Assembly (NCBI GenBank): GCA_000092065.1
Contig: CP000587.1
Source: Ostreococcus lucimarinus
Taxonomy: Eukaryota
Reading direction: 5' to 3' (one strand)
Length of the DNA stretch: 64,000 nucleotides
How positions within the stretch are numbered: position 1 is the first letter of the stretch; each line of letters begins with the position of its first letter. A model generated the notes under the pieces. It saw only the letters and a list, made by a program, of their open reading frames with translations. It ran no database searches and had not been told where the DNA came from. Below are positions 1,424-23,041 of this stretch, one piece after another. A program made the translations under genes and the position numbers.

Positions 1424-4400
1424 TCAAAGGCCGCCGGCGATGATTCTTGGTAGGATTGCGGTGGCGACACCGAGGGCGTAGTACGCCCAGACCGGAATGT
1501 CGCGCACGTCGACGACGGTGTCGCCCTTGGCGCGACCGTCCATCATGGCTTGCATCTTTTCGCCGTCGTCTGCGGCGGCGAGTTGCTTTTCGACCTTGCT
1601 GGAGATTTCGTCGATGGTAGACTCGTCGATCTCCATGGACGTGGCGTATCGGCGCTTGATGCGGTCCAAATCATCCGCAATCTTGCGCGATTCCTCGAGA
1701 ACCTTGCGTTCTTCGCCGTAAAGCGCCAAGAAATCGGCGAGCTTTTTCTCCGTGGCGCCCAACTTTTCGCGAACGATGATGAGTTGCTTTTCGTTAGTCT
1801 CGATTTGTGACTTGTACGTGGCCACGTCCTTGGTTTCGCTGCGAAGTCTCTGGATTTCCGCTTCGGCCACGTCCGCTCTCTTCTCGGCGCTAGAGACGTC
1901 AACAAGCGCTTGACGCGAGAGCTCGTCGATTTCGGATTCGTGCTTTTGCTGCATGGAGGCATACTTGGATTCGAAATCCGCCGTCAAGCGCGCGATCTCC
2001 GAAGCTCGTTGATTCTGTGCGTTTGCGAGCGCTTTGGTAAGGTCCGCCTGCAATTGAGCGAGCTCATCCTTGAGCTTTTGCATTTCAGCAGCCTTGGAAG
2101 CGTCGACGCTGGAGAGCTTATTTGCCAGCACAGACTTCTCCTCCGCGATGGCGGCGAGCGACTTCTCGAGCTCGGCGACGCGCGCTTGAGCAGCGTCCCT
2201 GGCGGTGGCGAGCGTTGCCAGCTCCTTGGGATCGACGGCGTTCTTCGTGAGAGTCGCGACTTCCTTCTCCAGTTCGCTCGCGCGAGCCAAGGCGGCGTCT
2301 CGAGCGCTGGCGAGCGTTGCCAGCTCCTTGGGATCGACGGCGTTCTTCGTGAGAGTCGCGACTTCCTTCTCCAGTTCGCTCGCGCGAGCCAAGGCGGCGT
2401 CTCGAGCGCTGGCGAGCGCTGCCAGCTCCTTGGGATCGACGGCGTTCTTCGTGAGAGTCGCGACTTCCTTCTCCAGTTCGCTCGCGCGAGCCAAGGCCGC
2501 GTCTCGCGCGTTCGTGAGAGAGGCCACTTCCTGCTCGAGCTTTTCGAGAGCTGCCTTGGCCGAAGCCGCGTCGTTGGAAGCGGACTTCGCGTCAGCGCTC
2601 GCCTTCGTCAGCGCAGCGTTAGTGTCTGCGATCGCCTTCTCGAGCTTGGCCTTTTCAGCTTCGAGCGCGGTCACCTTACCGGCGCTCGTCGTGTCGACCT
2701 TGGCCAATGCTTGCGAGAGCTCGGACTTGTGTTGCGCAACAATACTGCTCAACTCGTCGGCGTGAGCCTTCTTCAAATCTGCAGTCGCTTGTTTGACGAG
2801 CTTTTCGTATTCGGCGACCTCAGCTTCGAAGGCGGCACGAGCCTTGGCGGACTCATCCAAGAACATTTGCTCCAACTTCTTTCGTTGATCCTCGGCTTGG
2901 GCGATGACTTGACTTCGCGCTCGCTCGAGCGCCGTCTTCGAAGACGCTTCGAGTTCCGCACGCTGCGCTTCAGCATCCGTCAACGACTTGGCGAGTTTAT
3001 CCTTTTCGCTTTGAAGTTGCGCTTCGAGGGCGCTAATTTGCGCTTTGAGGTCCGACGCGTCGCTGGCATCCTTCAACGCCGCCACATGATCCTTGTTCAA
3101 TTTATCAATCTCCGCGGCGTGATCCTGTTGCAACTTGTTCAAAGTGGATTCATACGACGCCTTGGAGCTCGTCAACGAATTAGTGAGCTCGTCGACTTGT
3201 TGTTGCAACCCGGGGATGAGAGCCGCTTTGGTGAGAGCATCGGCGAGTTCTTTTTCAGCTTGTGCGGCGTTCTGCTTCTCGGCATCCGCGAGTTTCGCCT
3301 TGAGTGCGTCAATTTCTGCTTGCGCTTTCGTCAACTTGGCTCCGTACTCCGCTTCCACTTGTTCCTTCGCCTTTTGTAATGCGCTCTTTTGCTCAGTCTC
3401 GAGCTTGGAAATCTTCGAAAGCAAAACCGCATCGGCACTCTCTGCGGCTTCCTTTGCCGCGGTGAGATCTCTAGCGTTTTGAGCCTTGAGCGCGGCGACG
3501 TCCGCCTCGTATTGAGCCTTGGCGTCTGCGAGTGCTTTGCTAGCTGCCGCAACATCCGCATCGGTACGTTTGCGAAGCTCTTCGATTTGAGCGGCTAATT
3601 TGGCGTCAAGTTCAGCCTTTTGCTCCGCGAGTCGCGCTGAAATTTGGGCGTCAACATCGGCGAGCGATTGAACAGCTGAAGCCTTCGCCTTTTCGGCATC
3701 AGCCTTGGCCAAGGACAAATTCTGATCATGTTCTGCTTCAAGAGCGGCGATGCGAGCGCTGAGTGCGTCGCGCTCCGACGAGACAGCGGCCACGCCTTCC
3801 TTCGCTTGCGCATCGAACGCGCTTCTGAGCTCGTGCATCTCATCAGCGAAGTGCTTCTCCAACTCGGCAACCTTGTTTGCCGCCGCACTCTTCGCCTCAC
3901 TGAGCTGCGATTCCAATTCCTTGATTTCCTCTTCAGCCTCCTTGAGTTTGGCGTTGAGCGTCGCGATTTCGGCTTCAAATTGTGCCTTGGCATCGGTGCC
4001 CGCCGCGGCCGCCTTCAGTTCAAGAGCCTTAATTTCAGCCTCAAGCTTTTGAACCGTCGACTTGTACTCGCTCTCCGTCGAGCTAAACTTGGCTGTCAGG
4101 GCGTCGAGCTCCTTCTTGGCCGCACTCCCATCTTCAGCCTGGATAGCCGCGGCTTGGATCGCCTCGGCAGTGCGCGACTTTTCCGCCGCTAGTTGGCGCG
4201 CAGCGTCTTCACGCGCCGCAGCAAGTTGGTCTTCAAGGGATTTGGTCGTCTTAGCGAGGTCTGTCTCGAGTTGCGCCATCTTCGCCTTGATGGCTTCAGC
4301 TTGCGCAGCTTCGGCAGACTTCAGCTTGGACTGCGATTCAGCGATTGCCTTCGCGTGATCAGCGTTGATTCTTTCGATCTGCACCTTATGCGCGCGTTCG

Positions 4401-15468: not shown

Positions 15469-16287
15469 TCATAAATAATGCGCGCGATTACCCGAGCGCT
15501 GCTCGGCCGCGCGCCGCGCGGCGTACCTGGCGCCGACGGAATTTTTCCGATGATGCCACTGGAGCGCGAGAGGCAGCGCGCGCGTGAACAAAACGTAAAT
15601 CAAACCCACGCCGCCTCCTGCGAGCATGGCGACGCGTCCCGCATCTATTTTCGAACCTTTGGAAGCTTTACGCGATTTCTTGCCGCGCTTCTTCGACGGT
15701 TTCGACGTTTTCGCCTTGTCGGCCGATCCGCTTCGCCGCGCCGCGCGTTCGCTCGACTTGGCCGCCGCACCATCGAAACACCATCGCTCGCCCGGGGCGA
15801 CGTAATCCCATCCCGCGGCTTCACACATCTCTTTTCCCTTATCCCTCACGTCCCCGATCCACTCCGACAGTTTGGTGCAGATCGTATCGCTCGGTCGACA
15901 CGGCACCAACCGCCGCGACCCGTCCTCCGCGAAGAACTCATCCGCGCACGCCCTGTACACCCCATCGCACGCCGCCGCGCACACCGGCACGCCTTCGCTC
16001 ACCCCTACTCTCGCATCGCACACGCTGCACTCCAGCGCGCCCCACGCGTCTCGGCATCGCTCGCCGAACCCGTTCAGCTGCATGTGCACCGCGCGCACGC
16101 GCGCCGCGTCCGTCTGTTCCTTCCCGCAGCACGTCGACCCGCGATGGGCGTCGCAGAACGTCATCCCCGACCCCTTCGCGGGTTTTTGTCCGTGACGCGC
16201 GAACGGGGCGTGGCGCTCCTTGCTCGCGCACGTCGCGCCGTCCGCGGCGCTCGCGGTTTTCGCCGTCAGCATCACCAACGAAGCCAT
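15469..16287 (-). CDS. Cys-rich type-I membrane protein, tentatively folate-receptor-like domain
   Basis: Track ORF 15469..16446; the upstream 53 codons are Arg-rich. ATG at 16287 (MASLVMLTAKTASA, signal peptide). It has about 16 Cys with a CC doublet (TFCDAHRGSTCCGKEQ), and a C-terminal TM (VAMLAGGGVGLIYVLFTRALPLALQW). The folate-receptor assignment is a weak pattern match only. Confidence 0.4.
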   Translation of the reverse strand: MASLVMLTAKTASAADGATCASKERHAPFARHGQKPAKGSGMTFCDAHRGSTCCGKEQTDAARVRAVHMQLNGFGERCRDAWGALECSVCDARVGVSEGVPVCAAACDGVYRACADEFFAEDGSRRLVPCRPSDTICTKLSEWIGDVRDKGKEMCEAAGWDYVAPGERWCFDGAAAKSSERAARRSGSADKAKTSKPSKKRGKKSRKASKGSKIDAGRVAMLAGGGVGLIYVLFTRALPLALQWHHRKNSVGARYAARRAAEQRSGNRAHYL

Positions 16288-16607
16288 CGCGATCGCGACG
16301 CGCGCGCGCGGCGAGGCTCGACGCGCGCGCGAGGCGCGCATCGCGCGCGAGACGCGCGCGCGTCGACGCGCGCGCGCGCGAGACCGCGCGTCACGACGCG
16401 ACGCGCGCGCGGCGTCGGTGAGTGCGGTCGGACCGACGCGCGGCACACGAGCGCGCGCGCGCGAACGACGGCGTCGCGCGCGGTCGCGAGCGCGCGAACG
16501 CGCGGACGCGAACGCGCGCGAACGCGCGGCGGGCGCGAAGGGCGCGCGCGCGGTCGCGCGCGCGACGGGGAGACGCGAAGGGGGACGACGTCACGAAGGC
16601 GAGGAAG

Positions 16608-17378
16608 ATGCGCGCGGTCGACGCGCGCGCGGTGACGACGACGAAGGCGACGACGACGCGCGAGCGCGCGTCACGCGCGTCGCGCGCGTGGTCGACGCGA
16701 GGGAGGGCGACGAAACCGGCGCGGGACGAGAGAGGAGGGAGGCGAGGACGCGGCGGCGCGCTCGAGGCGGCGGCGGAACGCGCGGAGCGAAGCGAAAACG
16801 AAATCTTTAGCGTCGCTCGAGCGCCGGCGTGCGAACTGCTGTCGAATGAGAATGGGGCGTACACGGTGCGGGGGGAGATGACGCTGCGCGGCGTCGCGGC
16901 GTCGAGCGTGTATAATCTATTGACGGATTACGAGGCTTCGCCGCGGGCGTTTCGAGCGGTGCGGAGCGTGAGGGTGATCGAGTGCGAGGGTGATGCGTGC
17001 GTGGCGAGTAATATTTACATCGAGCAGGAGTGTGAATGGAAGTTTTTTGTTTTCGGAGGGGCGTTTCCGTGCGCGTTTGAGGTTGAGGAACGCGACGAAG
17101 AGATGAAGATGAAGTGTTCGCTCGCGCGGGGTCGGCGAGGCACGGGGTTTTTAAAACAGTTTGAGGGGTCGTGGTCGGTGGAGAATACGAGCGAAGGGGT
17201 GCTAATCGAACACACCCTGATGGTGAAGCCGAAACTGACCCCGCCGTACGCGAGTAAAATTTTTGTACAGCAAGTGGAGCAGATTCTCGAAGACGTGGTG
17301 AACGAAATCGAGACGTGGAACGGCGTCGTCTACGGCAAGCCTCCGCATCGCCAGGGCGTGGACGCCTCGATTATTTAA
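16608..17378 (+). CDS. SRPBCC (START/Bet v1-like, polyketide-cyclase-type) domain protein with transit-peptide-like N-terminus
   Basis: Track ORF 16422..17378. The first plausible ATG is at 16608 (MRAVDARAVTTTKATTTRERASRASRAWSTRGRATKPARD). The domain region is IFSVARAPACELLSNENGAYTVRGEMTLRGVAASSVYNLLTDYEASPRAF...FEGSWSVENTSEGVLIEHTLMVKPKL. Confidence 0.5.
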   Translation: MRAVDARAVTTTKATTTRERASRASRAWSTRGRATKPARDERGGRRGRGGALEAAAERAERSENEIFSVARAPACELLSNENGAYTVRGEMTLRGVAASSVYNLLTDYEASPRAFRAVRSVRVIECEGDACVASNIYIEQECEWKFFVFGGAFPCAFEVEERDEEMKMKCSLARGRRGTGFLKQFEGSWSVENTSEGVLIEHTLMVKPKLTPPYASKIFVQQVEQILEDVVNEIETWNGVVYGKPPHRQGVDASII

Positions 17379-17520
17379 TATTTAATATTCTTGAGTGTTT
17401 GTATCGTTAGTTTCGTCGTCATTGTTTGCTAGAACAATTTATATGTAATTTTTGAGTGCAGCTATACTCTGAGCATCTGGAGCTGGTGTCGTTTACAAGT
17501 ACAGTGCGCGGGGACGGAAT

Positions 17521-19497
17521 CTAAGCGGCGGACGTCAGCACTTCGCTCGCGAAGTACCGCACATCCGCATCGGGGTCGCTTTGAAGACCGACTAGAATAG
17601 GTCTGATTTCGCTCTGGAATTTTGCCACATCAATCGCCTTGATGAGCGGAGAGAGCGCCTTGGCGGCGTTGAAGCGCACGTTGGGCACGGTGTCCGTCGT
17701 AGCATGCTTGATGATTGGCAAGATTTCCCCAAGAATCACTTCTTCGCCGACCGCTGGGGCGAGAAGCGACACCGCTCGTAACACAGTCAAGCGATAGAGG
17801 TAGTGGTGTGACGACATGAGTTCCTTGATGCGTGGAAAAATGTATTCGAGCGCCCAGTCGGCTCCGAAAATCTCCGTCAAGCGGAACAAGTTATTCGCCG
17901 CAGCTTCGCGAATGGAATAAACTGAGTCTTGCAACCATTGCAGACAGAGCGAGTTTAGTAAATCATCACCGCTGTCTGATCCTTCGTCCTTTTGGAACAA
18001 GAAGGTCGTGCCGATCTGTTGCGCTAACACCGGAATGTATTCGATGATAGCTAATCGAACTCGCCAGTGCTTGTCTTCTGCTAATTCTTTGATCGCCGGA
18101 AGAAGCTCAGTAGAAAGCATCTCCACCCCGATTACCGTGTTCACTTGCTCGAGTTTGCTGATGATGTTCAGTCGCACATCCGGAAACTCATCCTTGAGCA
18201 AAATGAAAAACACCGGGAGCAGCTTTTCCACCGTCGTGTCTTTACCCATGGTTGGGGCCAAACCCAATACAGCCTCCGCAAGCGCGGCTCGCACGTGCTG
18301 AGACGAATCATTCGCCAGTTCGTGTACTTTCGGTAAGATCTTTTCCGCGGAGTACACCGCACCCGCGAGTGAGCAAAACTCTGAAATCTTACCGGCGGCG
18401 GAAATTCTAACTTCTCCCTCTGAGTCGCCGAGCAAGGCTACGTACGCGTCAAATAATCCCTTTGCCGCAACCTCTGCGCCTACTACGTCGCACATCTCAT
18501 ATATTTGCTGCGCCACCGCGTATCGAACGCGCCAACTCTTGTCGGCGGCGAGCTTGAGCACTATAGGGACGATCTTGTTCGCACAATCCGTCGCAGAGAG
18601 CAACTTGCCTAAAACCACGCAGTCCTCGACGACGAGCAACCGAACCGAATCTTGATCATCACTCGTGAGCGCCGCGAACATCGTCAGCAACTCGTTCACG
18701 ATGAAATCTCCCGAGCTCACTATGGCAATTTTTCCCAAGTTCTGCGCCGCCGCGCGTCGAACCATGGGCGTCTCGTCGGCGCACAAATCTCTAAACATCC
18801 CGGTCAACGTGTTACGCAACTCCAACTGCGACTCCTCCGAGCGTTCAAACGCGGTCGCGAACAACCCACACGCGCTCACTCGCGCCGTAAACCAATCACC
18901 TTGCGCTAATCTTTCGATCAAAGGCACAAAATATTTCCCAATCCCTCCCGGCGTCATCGCTCGACCCACCGCGCACGCCGTCTCCACCGCCTTGGCCCGC
19001 ACCACCGTCTCCTCTACCGTTATCAGCGTCTCCAACGGCGCCAGGATCACGTGCACGTGTTCCTCCCCGCCGACCGCATCGATCAACGTCGCCAATTCTC
19101 CCGCGATCGCCAGCAGGCACTCATCATCCTCGTCGTCCCGCTCCGCCAAAAACGGCACGAGTTCGCTCCGCGCCCGCTCCGCCCCCAGCGCCTTGGCGAT
19201 CGTCCCCAGCTTCGCGATCGACTTCAATCGCAGCTCCACGTCCTCGCTCTGCGTCGAGCGCGACGAAACGCGTCCTCACCATCGTCAGTCCTCGCGCGCT
19301 TGCCCCGCGCCGCATCGCCGCGTCACCGCGCCGCACTTTAAATCAAATCATCGCCTCGTCCCGATCGCGCGCGCGCCCTCGCGTTATCGCCGCCCGCGCT
19401 CGCGTTCGCGCACCTTGAGGTCATCGATCAGCGCCCCGACGGAGATGGCGTCGTCCTCTTCCGCGTGCGCGGTCGTGGACGGCGCGTCGTGCGACAT
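17521..19497 (-). CDS. PPP2R1: protein phosphatase 2A scaffold subunit A (PR65, HEAT repeats), two exons
   Basis: Track ORF 17521..19239 starts at GTG ([15 protein letters not shown]) and lacks the conserved PR65 N-terminus. Exon 1 is 19414..19497 (ATG 19497; [28 protein letters not shown]), followed by donor GTGCGC. The intron is 19249..19413 (165 nt), ending CAG. Exon 2 is 17521..19248. The splice junction gives ...[11 protein letters not shown]|[18 protein letters not shown], collinear with human [32 protein letters not shown]. Confidence 0.85.
19249..19413 (-). other. intron 1 of PP2A-A gene (GTGCGC...CAG)
   Basis: Inferred from restoration of the conserved PR65 N-terminus. There are stop codons in the CDS frame within the intron. 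Confidence 0.8.
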
Positions 19498-19591
19498 CGT
19501 GCGAGCGTCGCGCGTCGTCGTGTGCGTCGCGCGACCGCCGATCGGTCGATCGGCACTTCACCGCGCGCGCTCGCGGTCGTCGCGCCGCGCG

Positions 19592-20070
19592 ATGAATCAA
19601 CCGAGCCGCGCCGATCGGTTCGTCCTGCCCGAGGGCGAGCGCAAGCTGTCGTACGAGCGCGACACCAAGGTGGAGAACGCGGGGACGTTCGTGCTGCAGC
19701 GCGAGGACCACACGATTGGAAATTTGTTGCGAATGTGCGTGCGAGCGCGCGCGCGAAGCGAAAGACGCGGCGGGATGACGCGCGAATCGCGCGCGAAATG
19801 ACGCGCGGGATGATGCGAGCGCGAACGACTGACGATGACGACGACGGACGGCGCGAGAACTGTAGGGAGCTGCACAAGAACCCCGACGTGGTGTTCGCCG
19901 GGTACAAGAACCCTCACCCGACGGATCATAGAATCGTGCTCAAGGTGCACACGAACGCGAATACGACGCCGGTGCAGGCGCTGAGGGATGCGGTGACTAA
20001 TTTGCGAGCGGAGGTGGGCGATTTGTCGCAACAGTTTGCGGATGAGATTAACGCGCTTCGACGCGAATAA
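19592..20070 (+). CDS. RPB11: RNA polymerase II subunit RPB11 (RNAP_L/RPAC2 family), two exons
   Basis: Not in the ORF track as a unit. Exon 1 is 19592..19725 ([47 protein letters not shown] + 'at'), followed by donor GTGCGTG. The intron is 19726..19865 (140 nt), ending TGTAG. Exon 2 is 19866..20070 (g + [67 protein letters not shown]). The spliced product of 112 aa is collinear with RPB11 (EDHTLGN....[28 protein letters not shown]). Confidence 0.75.
19726..19865 (+). other. intron of RPB11 gene (GTGCGTG...TGTAG)
   Basis: Phase-2 intron. The split codon AT|G regenerates Met, giving [14 protein letters not shown], which aligns with RPAC2/RPB11 GNxLRxMxMKNPxV. Confidence 0.7.
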
Positions 20071-20172
20071 GATTTGGTCGCGACGTCGCGAAAGCGTTTT
20101 GTAAATAGATTTTAGAGTCAAAGAAAGAGTCGGATTACAACATTATTACTCCACCATCGTATTGGTGGATGT

Positions 20173-20173
20173 G

Positions 20174-20205
<32 letters not shown>

Positions 20206-20216
20206 TCAATTCGTAA
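20173..20216. repeat. (TGCG)n microsatellite in the convergent 3' region
   Basis: gtgcgtgcgtgcgtgcgtgcgtgcgtgcgtgcgtc. Confidence 0.9.
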
Positions 20217-20380
20217 ATAGTTGAAAAGTACATAGAAAACAGGAGCGACCAGCGTCTTGTCGTCGCCAAATATACATGTAAATCACGCCGCGTTCCGGTG
20301 AATCCGCGGCGACCTTATTATTCGTTATCATACTTGTTTTGATCGTCATACTTTGTTCGACGACGTTTTCTTCCGAAAAC

Positions 20381-20405
20381 ATCAATCAATCAATCAATCA
20401 ATTCA
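20381..20405. repeat. (TCAA)6 microsatellite in the 3' region
   Basis: atcaatcaatcaatcaatcaatcaa. Confidence 0.9.
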
Positions 20406-20414
20406 TAATCCTCA

Positions 20415-22526
20415 CTAGTAAATTGAGGGATGGGAGCTCGAGGAAGATACCGGCGGAGGACGGCCTTTCCAATTCTCAGAGAGTCGCTTGCCCGAGGTCA
20501 ACATCGATCCAGACGACGTCCTGGACAGAGGTGTATCACCCGATCCGTCGTGTGACATTCTCGAGCTTACGTTGAACTGTGATCTCTTTGAAAGCGATGG
20601 TTGACGCATCATGCTTTGCGGTAAAACCACAGGCGACCCACGTTCGCCGATGAACGACGCCACCGTGCCGTCGAACACTCGATTCACAGCTTCGTCCGTG
20701 ACGCAGAAAGACTTGATTCGCTCCATTTGCAACGTTTCGACCTTTGACAAAAGATCGGTGTGACGGAATAACATGATGTCAAACAACGCGCTCTCTTCGG
20801 ATCCGCGCTGGATACCGAGTTCAGCGAGCGTCGCGTCGCGCTCAAATTTCAGAGTGGAGCGTACGCCTTGCAATTCGTCGGCGACAGTCACGAGCCCGGC
20901 GCTCAAGCACGCGCTGATGAGCTCATCCAAGCTAATCATTCCACGATCGTGTGCCAACCCCATGAAACTTCTTGGCGCGGTTTCGTTTAAGAATTCAGAA
21001 AGCGAGCGAGAAGAATCCGAATTCGCCGTCAGATCCTCGTAACCGGGCGACATGGCGGTGTCATCGATACCGGGCGATCCCTCGGGAGAGTTCTGTGCGG
21101 ACTTGAGTAAGACCGCGCGATCATACTCTGTCTCGTCTACGTCCGCGGGAATGTTAAATCGTTCGAACGCGTCGGCGAGCTTGTTGAAAGATTCGCGCCT
21201 TTCTCTAGAACCGTCGGTAAAACTCCCTTCCTGGTGAGCCTCTCGCGCGTGCAACTCTCGGTACAACTTGTCGAGAACATCATGCGTTTGCGTCGCCTCT
21301 GCGTATCCCCTCGCGCCTCTTATCGTGGAATCTGAGCCAGACGTCGAGCCTCCAGCGTCGGAGTATCGCACCTTGTAAACCTTACCTCGCCGTACCGACA
21401 CGTCGGCGCGCATACCCAGCCATCGTCTCAGCACTTTCACATCCTGCGGTCGCAGCAACTCGGCTAACAACACTGCGGTGTGCTTTTCTAAACTTGCGTG
21501 CATAGTCAGCGCCGATAGTTGCCGTCTCGCTTCCCGTAACATGTGTTTCGGGACTTGAAGTTGCTCCGCTTGCGCCGCTCGCCTGTGCGCGGCATTTTTC
21601 TTTTGCTTGAGGCACGGATGCGCCGCCGCTTGCGCGGCGTTCATGCGATTCACGGGATTCAACCTGAGAAGCGAATGGACTAAATCACGAGTCAACGCAC
21701 TGATGGATTCATCCAAACTGTCGTACTCCGCACGAAGGACTTGAAATACCCCCTCGACTGAGTTCTGAAACGGCATCTTCCCCGAGCTCAACCAGTACAT
21801 AAATATCCCCACGGACCACATGTCCGACGCTTGCGAGTACTCACCACGCTCTTCGACTTCGGGCGCCTGAAACGAAGCCGCTCCCATGGGCGATGCCGAT
21901 GGTAAGCGCATTCCGGTTTCCGGACGAAGCTTTCGCACTCGGCCGAAATCAATGATTTTCAGCGTCACGTTTGCCGTCGCGTCGTCTGGCGCGTGTCGCA
22001 CCATGACGTTTTCCAGCGCCAAGTCTCGAAATACGTAGTCTTTCGCGTGCACGTACGCCACCGCGTTCGCGAGCTGTCTCATCAGATCCAACCGCACCTC
22101 GTGTTTCTTGTCTTCATTCGCGTCTTCGTAATCATTCAGCATCGTCAAATACTCCAACAACGACGTCCCGTCGACGAGCTCCATCACCAAGTGCACCTCT
22201 GCCGACGTTTGATACGCGCCGACGAACGCGACGACGTTCGGATGCGACATCGCGCTCAACGCCTCCACCTCCGCGTACGCCGCGATGCGATGCTCGTCCT
22301 CTCCGAACGCTCCCACGTGCGTTTCCTTCATCGCGCGTCGCGTCCCGTCGCTCGCCTCGACCTCGAACACCGTCCCCTGCTTCCCTCCCCCGATTTTCCT
22401 CCGCGCGACGTAATTCGCGTCCCATCGCTCGTCGATCCGCACCGCGCTCGGCGCCGACGTCGACGCTCGCGCGTCGCCCGCCTCCGCCGTCCCTCGCGCG
22501 CCCGTCGTCGACGCCGCGCACCCCAT
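20415..22526 (-). CDS. Ser/Thr protein kinase (CAMK-like catalytic domain) with N-myristoylation/palmitoylation motif and long C-terminal extension
   Basis: Track ORF 20415..22793; the upstream 89 codons are Arg-rich repeat. ATG at 22526 gives MGCAAS... (MGC N-terminus). Kinase subdomains: RKIGGGKQGTVFEV, AMK, HPNVV, HAKDYVFRDLALENVMV, IIDFG, APE, DMWSVG. About 430 aa of C-terminal non-kinase sequence. Confidence 0.85.
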   Translation of the reverse strand: MGCAASTTGARGTAEAGDARASTSAPSAVRIDERWDANYVARRKIGGGKQGTVFEVEASDGTRRAMKETHVGAFGEDEHRIAAYAEVEALSAMSHPNVVAFVGAYQTSAEVHLVMELVDGTSLLEYLTMLNDYEDANEDKKHEVRLDLMRQLANAVAYVHAKDYVFRDLALENVMVRHAPDDATANVTLKIIDFGRVRKLRPETGMRLPSASPMGAASFQAPEVEERGEYSQASDMWSVGIFMYWLSSGKMPFQNSVEGVFQVLRAEYDSLDESISALTRDLVHSLLRLNPVNRMNAAQAAAHPCLKQKKNAAHRRAAQAEQLQVPKHMLREARRQLSALTMHASLEKHTAVLLAELLRPQDVKVLRRWLGMRADVSVRRGKVYKVRYSDAGGSTSGSDSTIRGARGYAEATQTHDVLDKLYRELHAREAHQEGSFTDGSRERRESFNKLADAFERFNIPADVDETEYDRAVLLKSAQNSPEGSPGIDDTAMSPGYEDLTANSDSSRSLSEFLNETAPRSFMGLAHDRGMISLDELISACLSAGLVTVADELQGVRSTLKFERDATLAELGIQRGSEESALFDIMLFRHTDLLSKVETLQMERIKSFCVTDEAVNRVFDGTVASFIGERGSPVVLPQSMMRQPSLSKRSQFNVSSRMSHDGSGDTPLSRTSSGSMLTSGKRLSENWKGRPPPVSSSSSHPSIY

Positions 22527-22595
22527 CTCCGCGCCGTTCGATGGATTCGCGCGTCGGTCGCTTCGCGCCTCGGTCGCTTCGCGCGCGCGTCCCGT

Positions 22596-22690
22596 CGCGC
22601 GTCGTCGCGCGCCCTCGCGCGTCGTCGCGCGTCGTCGCGCGCCCTCGCGCGTCGTCGCGCGTCGTCGCGCGCCGTTCGCCGCCGCCCGCG
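22596..22690. repeat. about 3 x 30-bp tandem repeat in the 5' leader/promoter of the kinase gene
   Basis: cgtcgtcgcgcgccctcgcgcgtcgtcgcg reiterated. It translates in the artefactual upstream frame as GARRRATTRE x3. Confidence 0.8.
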
Positions 22691-23041
22691 CGCGCGTCCC
22701 CGACCGCGCGCCGCGCGCTGACGCCTCGCGACGCTTCGGCATCGCGCGACGCTTCGCTTCGCGCGAATCTCGCGCGGGCGTGGGTTCGGGCATGCGGCGC
22801 GCGTGGGTTCGGACATTCGGCGTTTATCTCTGTATGCACATACAGTCATACACCGTATACGATCACACACGCGCGCGCATCGCCTTTTCAGCGATCACAC
22901 CGCGGGATCGCGGCCGTTTGAAATCTCGCCGTTTGAAATCTCGCGCACGATGCCCGCGACGACGGATGCGCGCGCGCCGGCGACGGCGGCACACGCCGAC
23001 GCGATCGCTCGCGACGCCGCGCGACGCGGACGCGCGGCGAA

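Follow-up and report, generated by a model that had tools for sequence, protein, structure and literature searches.

How are the genes for the scaffold subunit A of protein phosphatase 2A (PP2A-A) and for the RNA polymerase subunit RPB11 organised in Ostreococcus lucimarinus, where an open reading frame (ORF) list of the bacterial style shows a large ORF that begins with GTG and misses the start of both genes? The region in question covers positions 17,521 to 20,070 of a stretch of 64,000 nucleotides (nt) from contig CP000587.1 of the GenBank assembly GCA_000092065.1, and this whole stretch is referred to below as the window. An earlier note on this DNA had proposed that the two genes stand head to head with their ATG codons 94 bp apart and that both consist of two exons with a short first intron. 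The base-by-base rebuild of 17300..20300 found the distance to be exact, with the PP2A-A ATG at 19497 on the minus strand, the RPB11 ATG at 19592 on the plus strand and 94 bp between them, and the two-exon structures are upheld by the reading frame, by homology and by comparison with relatives. The locus is an ordinary stretch of the O. lucimarinus nuclear genome, in which two single-copy housekeeping genes, PP2A-A and RPB11, are transcribed divergently. We regard as highly probable the full explanation, in which both genes carry an intron at the 5' end, form a divergent pair and are separated by a spacer that would drive transcription in both directions. The pair is composed of the following features.

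17521..19248, minus strand: PP2A-A exon 2 including the stop codon (17521..17523), residues 29-603
19249..19413, minus strand: PP2A-A intron 1, 165 nt, GTGCGC...GACGCAG, phase 0, with in-frame stops
19414..19497, minus strand: PP2A-A exon 1, coding, 84 nt or 28 codons, ATG at 19497; the protein begins MSHD, and the exon encodes helix A of HEAT repeat 1
19498..19591, no strand: inter-ATG spacer, 94 bp, 77.7% G+C
19592..19734, plus strand: RPB11 exon 1, coding, 143 nt, residues 1-47 and two bases of codon 48; the protein begins MNQPSR, in agreement with the plant and human RPB11 N-terminus
19735..19865, plus strand: RPB11 intron, 131 nt, GTGCGTG...CTGTAG, phase 2
19866..20070, plus strand: RPB11 exon 2 with its stop codon, from the third base of codon 48 through residue 115

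Each gene has a single short G+C-rich intron, and it is because this intron lies close to the 5' end that the bacterial-style ORF list misses the first coding exon of both; that of RPB11 is hidden within a spurious antisense ORF of 378 amino acids.

The large product is, to judge by homology, the PP2A scaffold subunit A of the PR65 type with 15 HEAT repeats. The spliced protein of 603 amino acids matches the Pfam families HEAT (2e-46) and PPP2R1A-like_HEAT (3.7e-36). Among proteins of solved structure, the 587-residue Arabidopsis A subunit is matched from its residue 10 to 579 by residues 19-601 (E 4e-208), and human PR65 from its residue 4 to 584 by residues 12-600 (E 5e-170 to about 1e-169; alignment start 10-12). 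Tandem HEAT repeats occupy nearly the whole protein and are collinear with PR65 from end to end, which places it among the PP2A scaffold subunits, and its identity of 54-59% to characterised orthologues suggests that it would bind the PP2A catalytic and regulatory B subunits. Exon 1 overlies the conserved N-terminal helix of HEAT repeat 1 in human PR65, and this helix region is complete only when exons 1 and 2 are joined. The GTG-initiated ORF, which the earlier note had called truncated at the N-terminus, indeed lacks the first helix of HEAT repeat 1, and addition of exon 1 restores collinearity with human PR65; all coordinates proposed there for the exon (19414..19497) and for the 165-nt GTGCGC..CAG intron were exact. 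Upstream of 19497 the PP2A-A frame has no further ATG before a stop codon is reached.

The small product is, on the alignments given here, the RNA polymerase II subunit RPB11, rather than RPAC2 (AC19) of RNA polymerases I and III or archaeal Rpo11. The spliced protein has 115 amino acids, and its match to the Pfam family RNA_pol_L_2 (PF13656; 1.4e-27, residues 32-103 of 115) spans the exon junction and identifies an RBP11-like dimerisation domain. Residues 1-110 align without a gap to the solved plant and human RPB11 (E 3e-36 to 2e-28) and to that of yeast, and the exon junction (..GNLLRM|) falls midway in this perfectly collinear alignment. The bit scores are 127 for the best plant RPB11 (E 3e-36), 102 for human RPB11-a, 56 for RPAC2 and at most 49 for archaeal subunit L. 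The identification of the pair as PP2A-A and RPB11, made earlier from the letters, is thus in agreement with Pfam and with the solved-structure alignments, and it is the details of the RPB11 model that had to be corrected: the protein has 115 residues and not 112, the intron measures 131 nt (19735..19865) and not 140, and the donor junction is at 19734/19735 and not at 19726. The gene had also been described as unannotated, which holds only for the ORF track from which that description was made, since the spliced product is identical over 115/115 residues to the O. lucimarinus CCE9901 protein XP_001418684.1 (ABO96977.1, UniProt A4S056). This exact match identifies the window as nuclear DNA of the O. 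lucimarinus type, and the identity to a product spliced at 19734|19866 means that the public annotation uses the same RPB11 intron.

The comparative evidence for the PP2A-A intron is strong, and its position is conserved across the Mamiellales. Removal of the intron, which has GT-AG boundaries, restores a single open frame collinear with the orthologues. At exactly the same codon boundary, introns of 163 to ~210 nt were found in O. tauri (L023/L024; 163 nt), in the two further Ostreococcus lineages represented by contigs L007 (163 nt) and L020, and in the O. lucimarinus-type contig L005; the Bathycoccus intron (L026/L027) has 134 nt, and the Micromonas-like sequence P0084 keeps the position and the phase with a divergent interior. 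The annotated O. tauri model of 163 amino acids fits the same structure, its 655 nt being equal to the sum of 78 (exon 1), 163 (intron) and 414 (exon 2). Prokaryote-style gene calls read through the intron at the same place, both in P0080 and in the Micromonas-like P0084 (..LIDELK-VGAP...TAQ-NENLQLRL in the latter). Conservation around the intron is confined to the exon-1 tail ATCTCCGTCGGGGCGCTGATCGATGAYYTMAAG, exon 2, the donor GTGCG, the motif GACTGACG some 30-40 nt before the acceptor, and the YAG; the remainder is unalignable, intron interiors are unconserved between clades, and GACTGACG is the only block internal to the PP2A-A intron that is conserved in four Ostreococcus lineages. The C-terminal segment of exon 1 is conserved in five Ostreococcus lineages. 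Over the last 33 nt of this exon the window and L007 show 8 nucleotide differences but a single, conservative amino-acid change, the pattern of a translated exon under purifying selection.

The same boundaries are met in sequences from which the intron is missing. The Bathycoccus transcript-like JGI contig L025 (2448 nt) equals the genomic contig L027 minus exactly the 134-nt intron. In one Ostreococcus clade (L030 1003..1329; L006 319..696) the PP2A-A intron is precisely gone from the DNA: the TARA metagenome scaffold L030 carries an uninterrupted PP2A-A that reads through the predicted DDLK|SEDV join, and it represents DNA, since its RPB11 intron is still present.

Removal of the RPB11 intron from RNA was observed in four independently assembled Logan contigs (L001-L004, from runs SRR28369095, SRR28369223, SRR28369099 and SRR28369019), which carry the exact ORF of 115 amino acids. 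They are 99.7-100% identical to 16488/16592..20126/20199 of the window, with exactly 19735..19865 gone. Three of the four end at 20126, which is 22 nt after the TGTAA at 20100..20104, and three start 16-28 nt ahead of the ATG at 16608 of the next gene leftward. All 11 metagenome DNA contigs of the same population (L005, L009-L018; 2.7-2.8 kb, 99.7-100% identity) retain both introns. We read L001-L004 as RNA because their ends fit transcript ends and they lack the RPB11 intron, which the 11 DNA contigs keep. Transcript-derived proteins of relatives (MMETSP P0078 and MERC P0003) have LRMELHKNPD contiguous across the junction, and the intron has the same position in O. tauri (112 nt), L007, L020 and L030. 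The possibility, raised in advance, that the locus is unexpressed or has other exon boundaries is thereby answered in the negative for the RPB11 junction 19734|19866 by the four contigs together with P0078 and P0003.

The divergent arrangement was found in five Ostreococcus lineages, with spacers of 94, 94, 74, 187 and 205-235 bp, and in Bathycoccus (~232 bp); the neighbouring SRPBCC/Polyketide_cyc gene is likewise syntenic. In Micromonas-like contigs (L028 1655..4612; L029 901..3756) RPB11 adjoins PP2A-A in tandem on the same strand, and its intron follows ..VIVKV, whereas that of Ostreococcus follows ..LLRM. These differences suggest that RPB11 was inverted locally after the split from Ostreococcus/Bathycoccus. 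The adjacency of the two genes is old, and the tandem order in the Micromonas-like contigs means that sharing a divergent promoter is not obligatory for the pair across these relatives.

Several observations, which concern the splicing of both genes and the function of the spacer, weigh against the explanation given above. The RNA origin of L001-L004 was read from the structure of the contigs, not from run metadata, and the four contigs might instead be DNA of a natural O. lucimarinus population that lacks the RPB11 intron, in which case they would hold no RNA evidence. Precise intron loss is known in the genus, as the DNA scaffold L030 without the PP2A-A intron shows, and the four contigs include intergenic DNA and the unspliced PP2A-A intron. 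However, such an origin would leave unexplained the common end of three contigs just past the TGTAA and the three starts just before the ATG of the outermost gene, and the 11 same-population DNA contigs that all keep the RPB11 intron come from many oceans; we therefore consider it improbable. Even if L001-L004 were DNA, the junction would be confirmed as a precise intron loss, in addition to the MMETSP and MERC transcripts of relatives.

A more specific difficulty is that all four of these O. lucimarinus transcript-like contigs retain the PP2A-A intron (19249..19413), though the RPB11 intron has been removed from them, and that they cover the 94-bp spacer and three genes on the two strands without a break. 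Possible sources of this unspliced sequence are pre-mRNA or genuine intron retention, RNA that is antisense or reads through, and an assembler that discards the short junction path. In addition, a degenerate pattern scan of the JGI metagenome contigs did not find the spliced PP2A-A junction, and a homology search with the first 89 PP2A-A residues gave matches only from the intronless clade, so that neither search recovered a spliced O. lucimarinus sequence. It might accordingly be supposed that the first intron of PP2A-A is mostly retained in O. lucimarinus, by regulated or inefficient splicing, and that much of the RNA is non-productive, because an in-frame stop follows 9 intron codons. Nevertheless, exon 1 is clearly under purifying selection, the intron position is conserved in three genera, and L025 shows the homologous intron of Bathycoccus spliced out. 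A de Bruijn-graph assembler may lose a short junction path if unspliced, antisense or pre-mRNA reads cover the intron, and the contigs do not measure splicing efficiency. The failed searches were of limited reach, as the index missed even the product of the 568-residue ORF, which is recorded in 869 blocks, and the absence of the 603-residue product from the cluster collection carries no weight, since the 568-residue product is absent there too. On balance, predominant retention of this intron is unlikely, and we continue to treat PP2A-A as a two-exon gene. The splice signals themselves add nothing to the argument in statistical terms: the pattern GTGCG...RCTGAC...YAG has 25 matches in the G+C-rich window against ~15 in simulated sequences (maximum 25), which is not significant, and statistics of this pattern were not used as evidence.

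A shared bidirectional promoter in the 94-bp spacer, which the earlier note had called a minimal one, is plausible from the sequence arrangement. The spacer, probably together with flanking transcribed sequence, would drive transcription both ways, and the two transcripts probably have abutting or overlapping 5' ends. As the spacer is all the sequence between the ATGs, both 5' untranslated regions (UTRs) and any shared promoter elements must fit into 94 bp; transcript-like contigs of relatives (L019, L025) begin 39-47 nt before the PP2A-A ATG, and two UTRs of that size would fill this length, which makes abutting or overlapping 5' ends likely. The spacer is invariant in the 11 O. lucimarinus-type metagenome contigs. 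At the same time, no conserved block was detected in a MAFFT alignment of the five Ostreococcus spacers, whose length varies from 74 to 235 bp, and the transcript-like contigs L001-L004 run straight across the spacer, which would be expected of overlapping 5' ends more than of a clean promoter island. These results would also suit two interleaved promoters, each located inside the 5' UTR, first exon or first intron of the other gene, with transcripts overlapping head to head, and the intron found in both genes within 143 nt of the ATG points in the same direction. Yet any RPB11 transcript whose start lay upstream of 19445 would include an upstream ATG in frame, and this speaks against a long 5' UTR for RPB11; the continuity of the contigs could stem from low-level read-through or DNA carry-over. 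Interleaved promoters are a serious but rather unlikely alternative to a promoter shared within the spacer. Very doubtful is the further combination of overlapping 5' ends, with each promoter inside the other gene, and substantial retention of the PP2A-A intron in natural populations. An intron with a promoter-proximal function would fit the longer spacer of the PP2A-A-intronless clade (205-235 bp, compared with 74-187 bp in the intron-bearing clades), and, if true, this combination would mean that splicing is coupled to divergent transcription in a eukaryote whose genome is extremely compact.

Two short motifs were noted in connection with the spacers. CGATCG was rejected as a spacer motif, since it occurs at the chance rate (96 observed, 102 expected). 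A sequence similar to the plant telo-box AAACCCTA, namely CTAGGGTTTAGATTAGGGTT, lies in the spacer of L020 (2314..2500) and is absent from the spacer of the window.

Both introns are of the U2 type with GT-AG boundaries; each has a GTGCG donor and a YAG acceptor, which a branch-like motif GACTGAC precedes by ~35 nt. The candidate branch sites are the following.

19283..19290, minus strand: GACTGACG, branch-point-like motif of the PP2A-A intron, putative branch A ~36 nt before the acceptor
19827..19834, plus strand: GACTGACG, branch-point-like motif of the RPB11 intron, putative branch A ~33 nt before the acceptor

The motif GACTGACG is weakly enriched in the window, where it is found 9 times and ~4 occurrences would be expected. 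At the equivalent place of the RPB11 intron O. tauri has GACTGACC and L030 has GACTGACG. The PP2A-A and RPB11 introns have the 11-mer GACTGACGATG in common; an origin of the two introns as introners or repeats was rejected, as this is all that they share and other matches are low-complexity, G+C-rich chance similarities. Likewise rejected was an intronic small nucleolar RNA or other known RNA, since Rfam at E<=1 over 17000..20500 gave no match in either intron; the sole match in that interval is a sub-threshold SNORD26 inside a coding exon 2.

UGUAA serves as the polyadenylation signal of green algae such as Chlamydomonas. Candidate signals of this type lie downstream of both genes.

17493..17497, minus strand: TGTAA, probably the PP2A-A polyadenylation signal, 24 nt past the stop codon
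20100..20104, plus strand: TGTAA, probably the RPB11 polyadenylation signal, with the transcript end near 20126

The flanking SRPBCC/Polyketide_cyc gene (16608..17378, plus strand) is convergent with PP2A-A, the stop codons being 142 nt apart. Its putative TGTAA (17444..17448, plus strand) and that of PP2A-A (17493..17497, minus strand) are ~45 nt from each other, and the 3' UTRs of the two genes probably abut or overlap, which would explain RNA assemblies in which these genes are fused. On the other side, the convergent 3' region of RPB11 and of a protein-kinase gene (20415..22793, minus strand) contains a perfect (GTGC)8.5 microsatellite at 20173..20206, and a perfect (ATCA)5.5 repeat is found at 20381..20402. 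Further leftward, the very G+C-rich interval 15469..16600 (~1.1 kb) is rich in Arg and Ala in every frame and has long ORFs overlapping on both strands. It is flanked by divergent genes, one ending at ~15435 on the minus strand and the other starting at 16608 on the plus strand; being unusually long as a spacer for this genome, it may hide exons or introns.

The public records of PP2A-A are uneven, and two O. tauri assemblies have truncated models. In the RCC4221 v2 assembly (CAID01000007.2; L023 ~2730..2750) a run of N inside PP2A-A cuts the product to 163 amino acids, and the RCC1115 record (L024 1435..2871) gives 478 amino acids from an internal ATG, without exon 1 and ~125 residues. The relevance of the present analysis is mostly one of annotation hygiene, in that a bacterial-style ORF track misreads intron-containing genes of picoeukaryotes, and the corrected coordinates are directly usable. 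The retained PP2A-A intron and the coverage of the spacer in transcript-like contigs provide a small lead on intron retention or overlapping divergent transcription in the Mamiellales.

The layout of the locus, a head-to-head pair in a compact genome that has been published, is typical and already known. The genes, one on each strand, face each other at their 5' ends, well within the usual limit of 1 kb for such pairs. In O. tauri, 2288 bidirectional transcript pairs with 3884 transcripts, roughly half of the genes, have been reported (PMC4035068); PP2A-A and RPB11 have the same divergent orientation, and their spacer is far below the 1-kb criterion. At 94 bp it separates the tightest divergent pair in the window, where the other apparent ones have ATG-ATG distances of ~150 and ~180 bp. 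Both members of the pair bear an intron at the 5' end, which is less common among head-to-head pairs. In Bathycoccus ~15% of genes have introns, with 0.15 per gene outside the outlier region (PMC3491373), and as introns are a minority in these genomes, two intron-bearing neighbours are mildly unusual and no more than that.

The encoded proteins depart little from their characterised counterparts. Compared with PR65 (human PPP2R1A, PDB 1B3U and 2IE3; Arabidopsis, PDB 9J5I), the O. lucimarinus scaffold subunit is the same end-to-end collinear HEAT-repeat protein, and differs in an insertion of ~10 residues, common to other Mamiellales sequences, and in a longer acidic N-terminal tail. RPB11 (POLR2J/NRPB11, the partner of RPB3 in RNA polymerase II; plant structures 8HIL and 7EU0) is matched without a gap over residues 1-110, with no notable difference, and there is none at all from XP_001418684.1, an RBP11-like dimerisation domain protein that at NCBI is named only 'predicted protein'. 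The orthologous locus of O. tauri is on chromosome 7 (CAID01000007.2, KZ155778.1), where RPB11 and PP2A-A likewise diverge and their ATGs are separated by exactly 94 bp (L023 3407..3500), an agreement in distance that may be a coincidence; the two spacers are unalignable. PP2A-A exon 1 with its 163-nt intron and the 112-nt RPB11 intron occupy the same positions there as in O. lucimarinus, whereas the intron sequences, like the spacers, cannot be aligned, and the last codon of exon 1 encodes Thr in O. tauri and Lys in O. lucimarinus.

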